Assembly (NCBI GenBank): GCA_051251855.1
Contig: JBPOGI010000003.1
Span: forward strand, 352,001 to 416,000
Direction of reading: 5' to 3'
Source of the DNA: Roseibacillus sp.
GTDB taxonomy: Bacteria > Verrucomicrobiota > Verrucomicrobiia > Verrucomicrobiales > Akkermansiaceae
DNA: 64,000 bases
This document shows, piece by piece, positions 17,219 through 54,156 of this stretch (position 1 is the first letter of the stretch; each line of letters opens with the position of its first letter). The notes beneath the pieces are model-generated. The model made no database searches and was not told the origin of the DNA. It worked only from the letters and a program-made list of their open reading frames with translations. Both the position numbers and the translations under genes were made by a program.

Positions 17219-20200
17219 TTAGTCCAAGGTTGGTCTGAGGAAGGGAGCTGTTTGGGAGGGTTTTGCTTTGGCGATCTGCTCGGGGGTGCCTGCGGCGACG
17301 ATGGTGCCACCGTTGGCTCCGGCTTCGGGTCCGATGTCGAGGATGTAGTCGGCTTGGGCGGCGAGGTCCATGTGGTGCTCGATGACGATCACGGTGTGGC
17401 CTTCCTCGACGAGGCGGTGGAGGACGTCGATGAGCTTAGCGACGTCTTGAGCGTGGAGGCCGATGCTGGGTTCTTCGATGAGGTAAAGGTTGGCAATTTT
17501 CATTCCCGAGAGAGCTGCTTTGGGGGAGCGGCCTTTGATGAGCTGGGAGACGAGTTTGATGCGCTGGGCTTCGCCGCCACTGAGGGTGGGGCTGGGTTGG
17601 CCGAGTTGGAGGTAGCCGAGGCCGGTGTCGGCGAGGAGGGAAAGGGTTTTGCTGAGCTTGGGGACGGCGGAAAAGAACTCGGCGGCGTCGGCGATGGTCA
17701 TGCGGAGGACTTCGCCGATGTTGCGGCCGTTGTAGGTGACTTCGAGGGTGGCGGGGTTGTAGCGGTCGCCTTCGCAGCCATCACAGTCGATCCAAGTGGC
17801 GGGGAGGAAGTCCATCTCGAGCTTGATGCGGCCGTTGCCTTTGCAGTCGGGGCATTGGCCTTCTTTGTTGTTGAAGGAGAAGCGGCCTTGGTCGAAACCG
17901 CGCATGCGGGCTTCGGGGAGGAGGGCGAAGAGCTTGCGGATTTCGTCGAAGAGTTTGACGTAGGTGGCGGGGCAGGAGCGGGAGGTTTTGCCGATGGGGG
18001 TTTGGTCGACTTCGTAGCAGGCCTTGAGGCTTTGGAAGCCGCTGATGGACTTCCAGGTTTTCTCGATGTTGCTCTTTGAGAGGGAATCGAAGGCAGGTTT
18101 GATAGTGCCGCGCATGAGGGAGGACTTTCCGCAGCCGGAGACGCCGGTGAGGACGGTGAGGCGTCCGAGGGGAATGGCGGCGTCTATGTTCTTGAGGTTG
18201 TTCTGGGTGCAGCCTTTGAGCTTGAGCCAGCCGGTGCGGGAGTTTTTGGCGGGGACTTTGCGGCGCGGTGGTTTGAGGAAAGGGTCGAGGCTGATGCAGT
18301 CGGCGGCGACGATTTCGCCGCCGAGACGACCGGCTCCGGGGCCGAGGTGGATTTGAGTGTCGGCGCGGTCCATGGTTTCCTCGTCGTGCTCGACGATGAG
18401 GAGGGAGTTGCCTTTTTGTTGCAGGGTGCGAAGGGTGTCTAACAGTTTGACGTTGTCGCGCGGGTGGAGGCCGATGGTGGGTTCGTCGAGAACGTAGAGC
18501 ACGCCGCGCAGGTTGGAGCCAAGTTGAGCGGCGAGTCGGATGCGTTGCGCTTCGCCACCGGAAAGGGTGTTGGCGGAACGGTCGAGGGAAAGGTAGCCGA
18601 GGCCAACTTCGTCGAGGAAGTGAAGGCGTTGGGTGAGCTCGGGGAGGATGTCGCGAGCGATGAGTTTGTCGCGGCCGGTGAAGGTGAGGTGTTCTATGGT
18701 TTCGCGGGCGTCGACGACGGAGAGTGAGGTGAGGGCGGGGAGGGAAAGGGCGCCTTCGAGGTAGACGTGGCGCGCGCTTTCGTTGAGGCGGGTGCCGTAG
18801 CAGTCGGGGCAAATGATGAGTTCGGTGACGTCGGCCTTGTCGAGCTTGCGGTCGTAGTCGATTTCTGCTTCGGAGACGGAGTTGAAGGCGGAGGTGTCGA
18901 TGCGGTCGCGCTTGGTGGCGATGTGTCCGTAACCACGACAGCTCTTGCACCAACCACGAGGGCTGTTGAAAGAGAAGTGGCTGGGGTCGGGTTCCTCGAA
19001 AGAGCGACCAGTGGCAGCGGAGACGCGGGCGGTGGAGAGGGGGACGATTTTTTTGTCGGAGGTGAGGAGGCGGCAGGTGCCTTTGCCGACTTTGAGGGCT
19101 TCGGAAAGAAGTTTGCTAGTGTGCAGTTTTTCAGTGTTCAGTTTGATTTCTCCGATGACGGCGTCGATGTCGTGTTCGACGAAGCGTTCGAGGCGTTGGA
19201 AGCCTTCGACATCCTTGAATTGTTTGTCGACGAGGAGTTGGGTGTATCCTTGGCGGCCAGCCCAGGCGGCGACGTCGGTGTGGTAGCCTTTGCGGCCGCG
19301 AATGATGGGGGCGAGGAGGGTGATGGGGCCTTTCTTGGCTTCCGCTTTGAGGGTTTGCAGAATGGTGTCCTCGGTCTGGGAGATGACGGGTTCGCCGGAC
19401 TCGGGGCAGTGTTGGATGCCGACTTTGGCAAAGAGGAGTCGGAGGAAGTGATAGAGTTCAGTGATGGTGGCGACGGTGGACTTGCCGCCTCCGCGTGAGA
19501 CGCGTTGTTCGATGGCGACGGTGGGGGGAAGGCCGGAGATTTTGTCGACGTCGGGTTTTTCTAACTGCTCGGCGAACTGACGCGCGTAGGGCGACATGGA
19601 GTCGAGAAAGCGTCGTTGTCCTTCGGCGAAAACGAGGTCGAAGGCGAGGGTGCTTTTTCCGGAGCCAGAGAGGCCGGTGACGACGACCATTTCATCACGC
19701 GGAATCTCGAGCGTGATATTCTTCAGGTTGTGATGCCGTGCCCCATGAATGGAAATCACGTTCTTCACCTTCGCCGCTTTCTTCGCAGCGACTTTAGTTT
19801 TTAGGTTTTTAGTTTTTAGTTTTTTCGAAACAAGAGGAGCCAAGAACTCGCCAGTAAACGTCTTCGACTTCGCGACTTCCTCAGGGGTGCCGGTTGCGAC
19901 GATTTCACCACCATGAACACCAGCTGCAGGGCCGAGGTCAATGAGGTGATCGGCGCTTTTGATGACGTCGAGGTTGTGCTCGATAACAAGGAGGGTGTGG
20001 CCGCTATCGACGAGGCGTTGGAAGATGATGAGAAGACGCTCGATGTCGGCGAAGTGGAGGCCAGTGGTGGGTTCGTCGAGGATGAGGAGGGAGCTGGCGT
20101 CGTTGGTGTTGGTTCCTAACAGCTGGCAGAGTTTGAGGCGCTGGGATTCGCCGCCAGAGAGGGTGTTGAGGGGTTGGCCGAGGCGGAGGTAACCGAGGCC

Positions 20201-39672: not shown

Positions 39673-41670
39673 CTAAGCTGCTGATTTTTTGGAAGCTTGT
39701 GAGGAGATTTTGGTTGGCTTTTTGTTGAGTGTGAGGATGGCTTCAGCGAGGAGAAAGAGGAGCATGGCGAGGAGGAAGGGGCGCCAGATTTCTTGCAGGA
39801 GGCTGCTATCGGCTTCTGTTTTTTGTTCGAAGAAGCTGACGTTGGTGTCGGGGAGGAGGGTCTCTTCGATTTCCTCGGGGTCGAGTTTGGCAAGGGTGAG
39901 TTCGGACTCGGGGAGGTTGAGAGCGAGGAGGGTGGCTTCGCCGTCCTCGAGTCGGTAGACGCCAGCTGCATCTGGATAGTCGGAATCGTTGAGGGCGGAA
40001 TCGACTAGAGTGGCTGCGAGGGCAGGGGCTTGGCCGGCGATTTGGCTGTTCTCGTCAAGGCGAGTGGCTCCCGCTTCTAACAGACGCTGCACGAGGACGA
40101 GGTGGAGGGCGGTTTGTTCGAGGTCGGACCAAGTATAGTCTGGAAGAGTGGTGAGGAGGTGGGCGGTGCCTTGTCCGAGGATTTTTCTCACAAGAAGAGG
40201 GGAGCCGTCGTCCCAGCTTGCGAGGGGGATGGCGTCGCTGGAGGGAGCGAGAGGAAGGCGCTTGATGGAGCGGAGTTGGTCGAGGGGAAGGGTGGTGCCG
40301 TCTTGGCCATCACGGAAGGGGCCTTCGTCACGGCGCCAGTTGTCGCTGGCGATGAAGAATTTGCCGGAGGGAGCGGTCTCGATGGGGTTCCACGCGAGGG
40401 TGGCGAAGGTGGCGTCGGGGTTGCTCTCGTTGGGGAGGAAGAGGACTTGGCCACCGGTTTCGAGATAGCTGCGTACGATGACTGCGGCGGTATCGGTGGG
40501 AAGGGGAGCGGCCCAGATGAGGAGGGCGCTGTCGGTGAGGTCGAGGGCGGCGATGTCGGGGCTGGGGCCGGCGAGGATGAGTTGTTCGATTTGGAAGGTA
40601 TCGAGTCCGGGAGGGGCGACGGCGCGGGTGAGGGCGGTCATGGCGTCGTCAGGCAAGGTGCCGTCGTGAACGAGGGTGGTGAGGAGAGGCTTTTGCTCGC
40701 CGTAGGTGAAGTAGAGGTGGTTGTCGCGCAGGTTGGGATCGGGGGGGAGAGAAACGCGGCCCCAGCCAGAGGCTTCGGCGTTGGGGAGAGGGAGGGTGCG
40801 GCTGAAGCGGAGGGTCTGGCCTTCGACGGCGACGGTGTCGGTGGTGGGCGCACCATTGAGATTGATGGTGACGGGGATAGTGGAAGCCCCGGTGGATTCG
40901 TCGCGGGTGAGTTCGAGTTCGAGGGTGAGTTCTTTTTCACTCCGTCGGCTGGTGAGCAGTCGGATGCTACGGTTGTCGCGTGGGGTCTCCGGGAGGGCGA
41001 GGATGCGGAGGGAGGTGGGTGAGGGGAGGTCGTTGAGGGTTTGCGCAAAGGCGGGCCAGCGTGAGTCGTCGGTACGCCAGTTGGCGAGTTGAAGGTCGGT
41101 GGCGAGCCAGACTTCGGTGCGGCCAGGTTGAGCTTCGCGAAGATAGTCGAAGGTGGTGGCCAGGAGAGTAGGAAGGTCGGCAGAGGTGTCGGTGGGGCCG
41201 GTGGTCGAGAGTTCGGGGAGGATGTCGGGAGAGGGGACCTCGGTGACTTCTCCGGTGGCGGAATCGAGGAGGACGAGGCGAGCGGTTTCGAGTTCTGCCA
41301 TGGCGTCGGCGACCTGTTGGAGGATGAGTTCGCGCTTGGTGGGCTGGCCATCGGCTTCGGCGCGCTCCATGGATGCGGAGCGATCGAGAATGAGAACGAC
41401 GGTATCGACGCTCGCTCCGAATCCGAGGAATCCGCCAAGCAAGGGGCGAGCGATGGCGAAGATGAGAGCGGCGACGGCCAAGGCACGGCAAGTGAGGATG
41501 ATGATGTGCTTGAGCTTTTTCTTTCCACGGGACTCGCGAGTGGCTTTCAGGAGAAAGTCCATCGCGGCCCACTTGACGGTGCGATGCCTCCTGCGGTTGA
41601 GCAGGTGAATGATGATGGGGAGGGAGACGGCAAGCAGTCCCCAAAGAAGGGCAGGTTGAAGAAAGGACAT
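39673..41670 (-). CDS. BatA (aerotolerance N-terminal) and vWA domain-containing protein
   Basis: MSFLQPALLWGLLAVSLPIIIHLLNRRR...WAAMDFL (BatA); LILDRSASM MIDAS; C-terminal TM; downstream of moxR-DUF58. Confidence 0.9.
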   Translation of the reverse strand: MSFLQPALLWGLLAVSLPIIIHLLNRRRHRTVKWAAMDFLLKATRESRGKKKLKHIIILTCRALAVAALIFAIARPLLGGFLGFGASVDTVVLILDRSASMERAEADGQPTKRELILQQVADAMAELETARLVLLDSATGEVTEVPSPDILPELSTTGPTDTSADLPTLLATTFDYLREAQPGRTEVWLATDLQLANWRTDDSRWPAFAQTLNDLPSPTSLRILALPETPRDNRSIRLLTSRRSEKELTLELELTRDESTGASTIPVTINLNGAPTTDTVAVEGQTLRFSRTLPLPNAEASGWGRVSLPPDPNLRDNHLYFTYGEQKPLLTTLVHDGTLPDDAMTALTRAVAPPGLDTFQIEQLILAGPSPDIAALDLTDSALLIWAAPLPTDTAAVIVRSYLETGGQVLFLPNESNPDATFATLAWNPIETAPSGKFFIASDNWRRDEGPFRDGQDGTTLPLDQLRSIKRLPLAPSSDAIPLASWDDGSPLLVRKILGQGTAHLLTTLPDYTWSDLEQTALHLVLVQRLLEAGATRLDENSQIAGQAPALAATLVDSALNDSDYPDAAGVYRLEDGEATLLALNLPESELTLAKLDPEEIEETLLPDTNVSFFEQKTEADSSLLQEIWRPFLLAMLLFLLAEAILTLNKKPTKISSQASKKSAA

Positions 41671-41708
41671 GTGTTGTTCGAAAGTTGGTAGGTGTGGGGC
41701 GGGTCTGC

Positions 41709-42225
41709 GAGGCCTTGAAAAACTCAATGTTCAAAAACTCAAAAACCAAAGGTGGGCGTTTTGAGGTGTGAGACGGGAATGGTAGTGAAAGGATTTGGGT
41801 GCGACTGAGATGGTTACTCGGCGGGTGGGAGTTTTTTGACGATGGTGGTGAGGATGCGAGCGAGTTGGTCGGCTTCGTCTTCGATAGTGGCCATGTCGTT
41901 GCGGAGAGAGGCGGGAAGGGTTTGCGAAAGGAGGCGGGCCCAGTGGCGGGACTCTGCTGCTTCCTTGCGGGCGACGCGCATGCGATAGATTTTGTCGCGT
42001 TGAGAGAGGGAGTCGTTCGCTTCTATGTAGTTCGCTCCTACTGACCCAGAGGAACGAAGAAGCTGCTTCGAATCCTCCCAGCAAACTGGTGGCAGGTCTT
42101 GTTCAGAAAGGACGCGACGAACCGAGACCGCGAACTGGTATGTTCGTTCCTCCAACTCATACTGTGTTCCCTTCGCCATCAACTTTGGTTTTTGAGTTTT
42201 TGAATATTTGGTTTTTCAAGGCCTC
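41709..42225. mobile_element. Putative IVS-like cassette: four-helix-bundle gene flanked by 43-bp inverted repeats (no transposase, no target-site duplication seen)
   Basis: 41709-41751 and 42183-42225 are reverse complements at 40/43 nt. The cassette interrupts the DUF58-batA junction, and the same IR recurs at 53958-54156. Mobility is inferred. Confidence 0.6.
41814..42179 (-). CDS. Four helix bundle protein (23S rRNA intervening-sequence protein / Avd-like family)
   Basis: YELEERTYQFA, KQLLRSSGSVGANYIEA, RVARKEAAESRHWARLL and EADQLARIL are hallmark motifs of the family. Confidence 0.92.
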   Translation of the reverse strand: MAKGTQYELEERTYQFAVSVRRVLSEQDLPPVCWEDSKQLLRSSGSVGANYIEANDSLSQRDKIYRMRVARKEAAESRHWARLLSQTLPASLRNDMATIEDEADQLARILTTIVKKLPPAE

Positions 42226-42257
42226 TCACGCTTTCCTTTATCCAGAGGAGCGTCGAG

Positions 42258-43139
42258 CTACCTGATTCGATTGGTGAGGAAGTCGGAGAGGATGGCTTCG
42301 TAGTCTTGGTCGGTGACGATGCGCTGATAGTCGGCTTGCACGTCGTGGGCTTTGGCTTCGACGAGGGTGAGGTATTCGTTGAGCGCGGCATGGTATTCCT
42401 CGGTGATGAGATTGGGCTCGGCGACGAGGGTGGAATTGTCTTCGAGGTCGACGAAGCGGTGGGGGCGGTCGAAGGCGAAGTCGATTTCTTGCCGGTCTAA
42501 CAAGTGGAAGAGAGCGATGTCGTGTTTGCGGTAGCGAAGGTGTTGCAGGGCTTCTCCGAGGGCTTCGGGGTCGCAGAAGAGATCGGAGAGAACTACGATG
42601 AGGGCGCGTTGTTTGACCTTTTCGGCGACGGTGTGAAGAGCGTCGACGAGGCCGGTTTCGCCTTTGGGTTCCAGCTTACCGAGATTGTCGAAGATAAGTT
42701 GAAGTTGGGAGGCGGAGCGAGAGGGTGGGATTTCGAGATGAATCTTTTCGTTGCAGACGGAGAGGCCGGCTGCGTCGCCTTGTTTGACGAGCAAGTAGGA
42801 GAGGGAGGCGGCGATGCGGCGCGCGTATTGGATCTTAGTGTCGGTTTCGCCGCTGGCAAAATTCATGGAGCCCGAGGAGTCGACCACGAAGTAGGCACGC
42901 AGGTTGGTGTCGGCCTCAAACTCTTTGATGTAAAAACGATCGGAACGCGCGAAGGCTTTCCAGTCGAGACGGCGAGTGTCGTCGCCGGGGACGTATTTGC
43001 GGTATTCGGCGAACTCGACCGAGGAGCCTCGGTGGGGGGAACGGTGTTTGCCGGCGACACTGCCGATCATCGCTTGGCGACTTTCCAGAGGGAGAGCCGA
43101 AAGGCGGGCGAGGAGATTGTGATCGATGAAGTCGTGCAT
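42258..43139 (-). CDS. DUF58 domain protein
   Basis: GKHRSPHRGSSVEFAEYRKYVPGDDTRRLDWK, VDSSGSM, VLSDL. Confidence 0.94.
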   Translation of the reverse strand: MHDFIDHNLLARLSALPLESRQAMIGSVAGKHRSPHRGSSVEFAEYRKYVPGDDTRRLDWKAFARSDRFYIKEFEADTNLRAYFVVDSSGSMNFASGETDTKIQYARRIAASLSYLLVKQGDAAGLSVCNEKIHLEIPPSRSASQLQLIFDNLGKLEPKGETGLVDALHTVAEKVKQRALIVVLSDLFCDPEALGEALQHLRYRKHDIALFHLLDRQEIDFAFDRPHRFVDLEDNSTLVAEPNLITEEYHAALNEYLTLVEAKAHDVQADYQRIVTDQDYEAILSDFLTNRIR

Positions 43140-43178: not shown

Positions 43179-44294
43179 TTAGTCGTCGAGTTCTTCTAAC
43201 AGCTTGGCGACGATCTTCTTAGAGGTCATGCCTTGGGACTCGGCAGCGAAGGTGGGAATGACGCGGTGGGTGAGGACGGGGGCGGCGACGGCGAGGAGGT
43301 CTTCGCGGCGAACCATGTAGCTGCCATGGAGGGCGGCGCGAGCCTTGGAGGCGAGGACGAGGTTCTGGATGGCGCGGGGGCCGGAGCCCCAGCCGATGAG
43401 TTCTTTGATCCACTCGGGGGATTCTTCGCCATCTGGGCGGGTGCGGCGGACGAGGGTGACGGCGTCGTCGTAGATGTGGTCGGGGACGGGAACGCGGCGA
43501 ACAAGGGTTTGGTAGGCTTTGATTTGTTCGCCGTTCATGAGCTTGTTGAGAGTCTCGGGGGCTTTGCCAGTGGTTTCGCGTGCGATGCGGCCTTCTTCGG
43601 CGGCGGAAGGGTATTCAACTTCGATGAGGAACATGAAGCGGTCGAGTTGGGCTTCGGGGAGGGGGTAGGTTCCTTCTTGCTCGATGGGGTTTTGGGTGGC
43701 GAGAACGAAGAAGGGCTTGTCGAGGCTGTAGGATCGGCCGAGGACGGTGACCTTTTTTTCCTGCATGGCTTCGAGCATGGCGGACTGGGTCTTGGCGGGG
43801 GCGCGGTTGATTTCGTCGGCGAGGACGATGTTGGCGAAGACGGGGCCTTTAATGAATTCGAACTCGCGTTTGCCGCCGACTCCGGATTCTTGGATAATGT
43901 CGGTGCCGGTGATGTCGGCGGGCATGAGGTCGGGAGTGAACTGGATGCGGGAGAAGCTAAGGTCGAGGGTTTCGGCGACGCTGGAGACGAGGAGGGTTTT
44001 GGCGAGGCCGGGAACGCCCATGAGAAGGGAGTGACCGCCAGCGAAGAGGGAGATGGAAAGTTGTTCGATGACCTCTTCTTGCCCGATGATGACTTTTCCG
44101 AGTTCGGCTTTGAAGTCTTGGTAGACTTTTCCGAGCTGATTGATGGCTTCGACGTCGTCTTCAGGGAGGCCAGCGTTAGAAGTGGGAGGCTCGGGGGTGG
44201 TTACGGTGGAAGCCGACTCGGAGGAGCTTGGGTTTCCAGAGGGGAAAGGAGTGACGGGGTCAGTGCTCGGCGTTTCAGATGGATTGTCGGACAT
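43179..44294 (-). CDS. moxR: MoxR-family AAA+ ATPase
   Basis: GVPGLAKT, RIQFTPDLMPADITG, LADEINRAPAKTQSAMLEAMQE, ATQNPIEQEGTYPLPEAQLDRF. Confidence 0.95.
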   Translation of the reverse strand: MSDNPSETPSTDPVTPFPSGNPSSSESASTVTTPEPPTSNAGLPEDDVEAINQLGKVYQDFKAELGKVIIGQEEVIEQLSISLFAGGHSLLMGVPGLAKTLLVSSVAETLDLSFSRIQFTPDLMPADITGTDIIQESGVGGKREFEFIKGPVFANIVLADEINRAPAKTQSAMLEAMQEKKVTVLGRSYSLDKPFFVLATQNPIEQEGTYPLPEAQLDRFMFLIEVEYPSAAEEGRIARETTGKAPETLNKLMNGEQIKAYQTLVRRVPVPDHIYDDAVTLVRRTRPDGEESPEWIKELIGWGSGPRAIQNLVLASKARAALHGSYMVRREDLLAVAAPVLTHRVIPTFAAESQGMTSKKIVAKLLEELDD

Positions 44295-53957: not shown

Positions 53958-54156
53958 GAGGCCTTGAAAAACCAAATGTTCAAAAACTCAAAAACCAAAG
54001 CTGTTTGCTCCCCGTCCTTCTAGACTCAGCGACGAGAAGAATTCCCCGAACCGATCAGGAGTCCACGAAGCTTATCCCACTCCTGAGAATCCCCGGCCAC
54101 TTCGAGCACTCAATTTTGGTTTTTGAGTTTTTGAACATTTGGTTTTTCAAGGTCTC
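53958..54156. mobile_element. Gene-less (MITE-like) copy of the 43-bp inverted-repeat element
   Basis: 53958-54000 and 54114-54156 are reverse complements at 41/43 nt. 53958-54000 matches the reverse complement of 42183-42225 at 42/43 nt. Internal segment is 113 bp. Confidence 0.65.

Follow-up and report, generated by a model that had tools for sequence, protein, structure and literature searches.

A four-helix-bundle gene between inverted 7/8-nt repeat arms at the DUF58-batA junction of a Roseibacillus moxR operon, and gene-less copies of its arms

The DUF58 and batA genes of moxR operons are usually adjacent, and indeed a gap of at most 60 nt is found in 21 of 30 DUF58 loci. In one Roseibacillus genome the two are parted by a small gene of the four-helix-bundle type, itself enclosed by inverted repeats (the arms). 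What kind of element is this cassette, and why does its gene lie between arms? A sequence-only reading of the window (the whole 64-kb stretch of DNA analyzed) took it for an intervening sequence (IVS) in an mRNA that might be processed, control batA and spread without its own transposase. We compared the cassette with homologous loci, with other copies of its arms in the genome that holds the window (G000), and with the same junction in eight congeners (G001-G008; nine genomes of the genus in all).

Anatomy of the cassette and its product

The features of the locus are collected in the table. As first read, the two 43-nt arms are identical at 40 of 43 nt, consist of A/C-rich units of 7 or 8 nt (by direct sequence reading), and the upstream one lies 3 nt from the ATG of the gene (42179-42177, minus strand). 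A repeat search extended the arms to 49 nt at 90% identity, the longest among 31 inverted pairs in 3 kb. The only palindrome within an arm is one of 6 bp at its outer end, and the arms pair with each other, not internally. A promoter and terminator scan found none in or at the arms, and an Rfam search of the locus gave a single chance-level match.

Features of the cassette, its neighborhood and two further arm loci in the window (gene names other than moxR, DUF58 and batA are labels that we assume)
Feature	Position	Strand	Basis
Four-helix-bundle gene, 121 aa, TIGR02436/PF05635, YDLEERT-type subfamily	41814..42179	-	profile matches, model
5' arm, A/C-rich on mRNA, ends 3 nt before ATG	42183..42225	-	repeat search
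3' arm, U/G-rich on mRNA, 62 nt past stop codon	41709..41751	-	repeat search
Probable outer 5' end: 27 variable purine-rich bases + TCGA (42253-42256, 1 nt past DUF58 stop)	42226..42256	-	
Probable outer 3' end: 27 variable bases + TCGA (41678-41681, 7 nt before batA ATG)	41678..41708	-	
DUF58 gene, host gene upstream of cassette	42258..43139	-	PF01882 E 2e-46
batA-type gene, host gene downstream of cassette	39673..41670	-	PF07584 E 1e-21, TIGR02226
moxR AAA ATPase gene (AAA_3), upstream of DUF58	43179..44294	-	PF07726 E 5e-63
Gene-less inverted pair, 114-nt unrelated spacer, between divergent genes; missing at syntenic G001 junction	53958..54156	.	
Single 7-mer-subtype array, in frame in linker of uvrA-like gene; matching G001 site has 8/7 subtype	19804..19824 (L270)	-	

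No target-site duplication had been seen, and no direct repeat longer than 6 nt occurs within 45 nt outside the arms at any of the eight inverted pairs of the genome. A TCGA lies 31 nt outside each arm of the cassette, and TCG recurs 30-32 nt outside the arm at 16 of 25 arm ends (6.7% expected), across intervening bases that are unlike one another and mostly purine-rich. These arm ends comprise 19 from G000 and 6 from relatives (L257 and L258 are near-duplicates, neither among the 16), and the p value of 2e-13 is overstated because the copies are related. With TCGA at both ends, the element would fill the junction from just after the DUF58 stop codon to just before the batA start; the whole element probably spans 41678-42256, beyond the 43-nt arms. 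The TCGA itself might be a motif that marks the ends, a target that was duplicated, or what survives of an ancestral AAATTCG unit.

The product matches TIGR02436 (E 3e-17; 62.6 bits against a curated cut-off of 24) and PF05635 (E 1e-10), a family present in 34 of 41 related genomes. Its predicted model has four helices (pLDDT 93), and Foldseek matched it to BT_0352 (2rld, five chains), Xcc0516 (2gsc) and Avd, the latter with TM scores of 0.73 (8ub7) and 0.69 (4dwl) at 16-17% identity. The fold that the sequence-only reading had named as common to Avd and the IVS protein family (S23p) is matched by the predicted structure as well, and a five-subunit ring (pentamer) is predicted for the protein. 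The closest named locus is in Roseibacillus persicicus (96%), and tblastn found no second copy of the gene in G000. The gene is under purifying selection: dN/dS is 0.019-0.072 among the long-arm copies of G000, G004 and G001, comparable to DUF58 (0.036-0.073), and 0.16-0.21 against G005.

Arms around homologues and elsewhere in the genome

Arms are a trait of the protein family. Among 80 homologue loci, which come from many phyla, 63 have arms scoring at least 30, as against 0 of 63 control flanks (17 of the 80 loci have no control flanks, which leaves 63 testable controls) and 6 of the 80 when compared in direct orientation. Within the same host family, arms were found in 20 of 27 loci, after 3 of 30 had been dropped for encoding identical proteins already counted; one gene set held 15 genes after profile and duplicate filtering. 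In 62 of 63 loci it is the arm on the 5' side that is rich in A, autocorrelation peaks at 7 and 14 nt, and the 5' arm ends at most 25 nt from the start codon in 36 of 63. By crude ORF calls, the gene is co-directional with both neighbors in 54 of 84 loci and runs against both in 4.

The arm word tracks the protein clade, with 20 label changes on the tree against a shuffled mean of 40, in a comparison where kin share labels. A residue code for the word did not appear in the alignment, in which no column is specific to the two independent AAAAACT clades; K63 is present in 12 of 12 AAAAACT-clade proteins, yet 12 of 37 and 3 of 17 other proteins share it. Other four-helix genes of the genome without flanking repeats would have counted against the sequence-only reading; the other one is flanked too, by arrays of a different word.

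This second gene (FEDLEVW type, L001:1420-1955) has AGTTTTC-type arrays of opposite polarity, and its neighbors are presumably ribonucleotide reductase subunit genes. A gene-less pair of the AGTTTTC word is present at a DUF58-batA junction (L036). All three genes of the GxxExxY type (TIGR04256; L253, L254, L255) are bracketed by inverted arms of their own, and words of that type also occur gene-less, often beside four-helix arms.

The cassette's own arms, for which a genome-wide search had been suggested, form a dispersed family. It comprises about 20 loci in G000, namely 8 inverted pairs and 12 single arms, with the gene inside one pair only (three single matches with 2 mismatches were omitted as likely chance and one arm found by blast only was added). 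The seven gene-less pairs have unrelated spacers of 39-152 nt, and a 15-24 nt end is common to three of them. Six of the seven are absent from every syntenic relative compared (1-4 relatives each), and the seventh is common to G004, with both arms altered in step. Since the same arms lie at about 19 other places without the gene, the protein likely binds the 7/8-nt arm units and likely helps the repeats persist or spread. The family is widespread and has solved structures but no assigned function, and repeat binding would give it a testable job.

The neighboring genes of the 20 loci are co-directional at 14, divergent at 4 and convergent at 1, and one locus is intragenic, in frame in a dnaE2-like gene; these gene calls are crude, since our home-made caller under-calls genes on the G-rich strand. 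A preference for operon junctions was rejected, because 14 of 20 is no enrichment over a background of 65-70%. Likewise rejected was an origin of the spacers as captured host sequence (in 14 comparisons with shuffled sequence, 1 came out ahead, and by a narrow margin), and a search of the seven gene-less spacers for gene remnants gave a best p of 0.015 in one of seven, not significant after correction. One spacer (G000:C8:312208-312340) holds a copy of another dispersed palindrome with 5 further matches in the genome. G000 has a strong GC skew of about 0.2, and the C-rich strand carries most called genes. Of the 20 arm loci, 19 fall in contigs or parts of contigs, 65% of the assembly in all, that have G-rich plus strands, contig orientation being arbitrary.

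Many of the copies are old and still: of 23 arm sites in G001, G004 and G005, 10 correspond to a G000 site that also carries an array, in some cases one of a different subtype (against a background of 1.6%; one of the ten matches is weak). Such sites bear on the idea that, at gene ends, slippage during replication together with template switching both creates and homogenizes the arms; the gene would then be an ordinary small operon gene that shares only their history. Bacteria have more heptamer repeats than expected, slippage of the polymerase has been put forward to explain them, and 83% of those in Xanthomonas occur at the same place in two species (PMC4692102). The differing subtypes at matching sites would fit this idea, as would the stacking of several repeat families at the same sites. 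Slippage would not lead one to expect the nearly fixed polarity of the arms, their presence around most homologues and in no control, a word that follows the protein clade or a fixed distance to TCG, and we consider it very unlikely as the whole explanation.

The Xanthomonas and Nostoc repeats do resemble the arms in that they are intergenic arrays, mostly of few 7-nt units, often in inverted pairs near gene ends and at the same site in sister species (PMC4692102, in part). They differ in that the arms are A-rich and not of the G-quadruplex type, and in that the arms are tied to a four-helix gene, a term that does not occur in the main text of that paper.

An in-frame insert of about 60 codons in a gene outside the window, which we take to be dnaE2-like (G000:C6:672400-672620; L262, L275), is made up of three repeat families: REP-like, cassette arm and GxxExxY-type. 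The matching spot in G004 and G005 carries different repeat mixes.

History of the junction and a predicted stem in the transcript

Aligning the DUF58-batA junction across relatives, as had been proposed, showed that the cassette is not at the same site in all of them. The long-arm cassette is found in G000, G004 and G001; that of G005 has shorter arms of other words, and G003 retains a 47-nt arm remnant. The gap between the two host genes is 0 nt in G006, 25 nt in G007 and 51 nt in G008, whereas in G002 the contig ends 196 nt past DUF58, and a different short contig carries a gene with 59% identity. In a quick tree, the six proteins whose genes immediately precede batA (L011, L014, L041-L044) make up a single clade (SH-aLRT 97); the DUF58 of L044 is only 72% identical. 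The arms of these six cassettes change on both sides together. In the DUF58 tree, G001 groups with G003, G006 and G008 (support 96/97). The simplest reading of these sequences would be one old insertion followed by vertical descent and losses, with three congeners probably having lost the cassette. By the trees, sites of the genus that are empty look like losses, not like sites before insertion.

The arms have been conserved over this time. The 5' arm is identical at 38-39 of 42 columns and the 3' arm at 38-41 of 43 among G000, G004 and G001, so that the arms are about 90% identical where the flanks are 42-68% identical. An 18-mer of the arm was counted 28 times in G000, 11 in G001, 11 in G004 and 8 in G005, in which the cassette is present at the junction, and 0, 1, 0 and 1 times in G003, G006, G007 and G008, in which the gene was not found with the query used. 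The count is 0 in G002 (79% complete) despite its 59%-identical gene, and 0-1 in 32 genomes of other genera. A looser 14-mer parts the groups poorly (G002 10 against 7 for the control, G008 4 against 2), and the nine congeners are kin, compared on a quick protein tree.

The layout remains that of an IVS, with inverted repeats enclosing a PF05635 ORF, and the long stem drawn by the sequence-only reading is borne out by prediction: about 40 bp in the operon transcript, about 22 of them in one unbroken stretch. The fold of 601 nt of the mRNA strand has a z score of -3.77, and 0 of 20 shuffles were as stable. On this view the cassette would be an mRNA intervening sequence that RNase III removes, its processing setting batA expression and selection acting on this host function. 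An RNase III gene is present in the genome, the cassette has been kept at its site over a dS of about 1 or more, and in vitro RNase III cleaves the IVS of Coxiella, which has an S23p ORF and a stem of 28 bp (PMC4990558).

We nevertheless consider such a role unlikely. Mismatches across 83 loci comprise 72 G-U against 87 A-C on the mRNA strand (p = 0.27), hence give no sign of selection on that strand; none of the three mismatches of the cassette itself pairs on the mRNA, and on the opposite strand two of them would form G-U pairs. Control of batA by the stem, as earlier suggested, also sits poorly with the same arms at 19 other loci, including divergent, convergent and intragenic ones, and with relatives in whose operon DUF58 and batA lie 0-60 nt apart, as in 21 of 30 DUF58 loci. 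Cuts by RNase III are not known to be religated, so that excision would merely split the mRNA, and cutting of the stem may be a side effect.

We also compared the cassette with rRNA IVSs. For IVSs in the rRNA of G000 itself, a search with four rRNA motifs found nothing, so that rRNA is probably unassembled. The Coxiella burnetii S23p IVS resembles the cassette, with a PF05635 ORF in the loop of terminal inverted repeats, a patchy presence and tandem heptamers just before the start codon, and ORF-bearing 23S rRNA IVSs of Leptospira are cited in the same source (PMC4990558). Unlike these, the cassette lies between the protein genes DUF58 and batA and not inside 16S or 23S, had no Rfam match of note, and has arms that recur across the genome as a family, in copies without the gene. 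In Coxiella the ORF is reported to be decaying and not to be made in vivo (PMC4990558), whereas the cassette ORF is under purifying selection. IVSs occur sporadically by horizontal transfer; the cassette is patchy too, but trees and dS fit descent with loss.

Known systems and a proposed master gene with gene-less satellites

Miniature elements of the MITE type have a target-site duplication and copies that are alike over their whole length; here the spacers are unrelated and the copies are not alike over their whole length. The likeness to REPIN-RAYT systems is closer, as described in 10.1101/2021.07.10.451892: the gene is single-copy, conserved and apparently vertical, repeat abundance is tied to it, and extragenic inverted pairs have a variable spacer (one single arm here is intragenic). 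In contrast to these systems, the gene encodes a four-helix bundle and not an HUH/Y1 transposase (the genome's 8 Y1_Tnp matches are at other places), each arm consists of tandem 7/8-mers and lacks an internal palindrome of about 14 bp, the loci number about 20 and not hundreds, and the gene sits inside a pair.

With the diversity-generating retroelement (DGR) protein Avd (4dwl, 8ub7) the predicted model has the four-helix fold in common, and Avd is homologous to PF05635 (PMC10053308, in part). Five Avd protomers grip flipped-out bases of an RNA stem-loop, with a reverse transcriptase as partner (10.1101/2023.10.23.563531, in part). Unlike in a DGR, no reverse transcriptase is among the neighbors of the cassette, the two reverse transcriptase matches of the genome being on other contigs, and no template or variable repeats were seen in the 3 kb around it. 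Eighteen four-helix genes lie inside cas loci, in a passage of PMC3936711 that mentions no arms. The literature searched, mostly papers outside subscription, held none that ties stand-alone four-helix genes to inverted heptamer arms or describes the cassette outside rRNA. The cassette is a variant of the ORF-bearing IVS layout that behaves like a REPIN/RAYT system in genomes and fails membership of both.

We favor, with a probability of roughly 0.45, a REPIN/RAYT-like master gene with gene-less satellites, in which the pentamer would be the repeat binder and a separate enzyme would copy the arms. The work would be divided as between RAYT and REPIN, but with no transposase in the cassette. Gene and arms would make up one long-resident element at the DUF58-batA junction, the sole coding member of the arm family. 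The predicted pentamer would bind the 7/8-nt units as specificity factor, a separately encoded candidate enzyme would copy the arms in trans to new sites, and the 3' arm, by folding back onto the translation start, might act as a brake on expression of the gene. This reading draws on the arms around homologues as against controls and their polarity, the arm word that tracks the clade, the one clade upstream of batA, low dN/dS and conserved arms, and further on the 18-mer abundance that goes with the gene, the patchy gene-less pairs, the fixed TCG distance and the Avd fold.

Several findings count against a master gene with satellites. G002 has a gene and no 18-mers, and the 14-mer separates poorly; the spacers are unrelated, whereas recent copying of units should leave look-alikes; nearly half of the arm sites tested in relatives are matched in G000; no residue marks the AAAAACT clades; and no copying enzyme is linked to the cassette. 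Candidate copying enzymes in the genome are the two reverse transcriptases, the three GxxExxY proteins, which we take to be nuclease-like, and the eight Y1_Tnp matches, none of them cassette-linked. The reverse transcriptase genes are at L249:733-2547 (604 aa, to our eye group II intron-like) and, shorter, at G000:C8:194863-195480.

A bolder version, by analogy with Avd, strikes us as unlikely. Stand-alone four-helix proteins would be free-living Avd equivalents, each pentamer reading its own heptamer array and delivering the stem to an enzyme from another locus, either a reverse transcriptase or a nuclease, that would write arm pairs into new junctions 30-32 nt from a TCG anchor. If true, a transposase-free class of mobile repeat would lie behind the heptamer repeats of many phyla. 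The locus offers a natural ligand (the arm), matched controls (the arms of other clades) and natural gene-loss lineages. Should the protein read its arms, a single account would cover the PF05635 family, rRNA IVSs, Avd and dispersed heptamer repeats, and a small protein ring that follows a repeat code might serve as a tool; should it not, a tidy IVS-like layout outside rRNA is left.

The nearest rival to a master gene with satellites is movement of the whole cassette alone, and rarely, which we regard as possible but on the unlikely side. The gene-less pairs and single arms would then be remains of insertions that lost the gene, and the arms would serve the gene's own expression through fold-back of the 3' arm over the start region, where the protein may bind. 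The closeness of the 5' arm to the start and the common orientation of gene and neighbors among homologues (on crude ORF calls) agree with this, as does the arm remnant in G003. So does the junction between moxR and DUF58, where there is another four-helix cassette: G001 and G002 have it whole, G015 has a 231-nt form in which an internal deletion leaves two gene ends out of frame, and in G016 it has shrunk to 40 nt; the deleted and collapsed forms (L022, L021) come from two other genera. Such decay is hard to square with seven spacers that hold no significant gene remnant, with a genome that has no second gene copy by tblastn, with gene-less arms nearly identical to those of the master although the interior is wholly gone, and with four loci between divergent genes.

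At the same moxR-DUF58 junction of G001 (L013), the 5' arm and the first ~27 four-helix codons are tandemly repeated before the intact gene, in units of about 158 nt that span an assembly gap.
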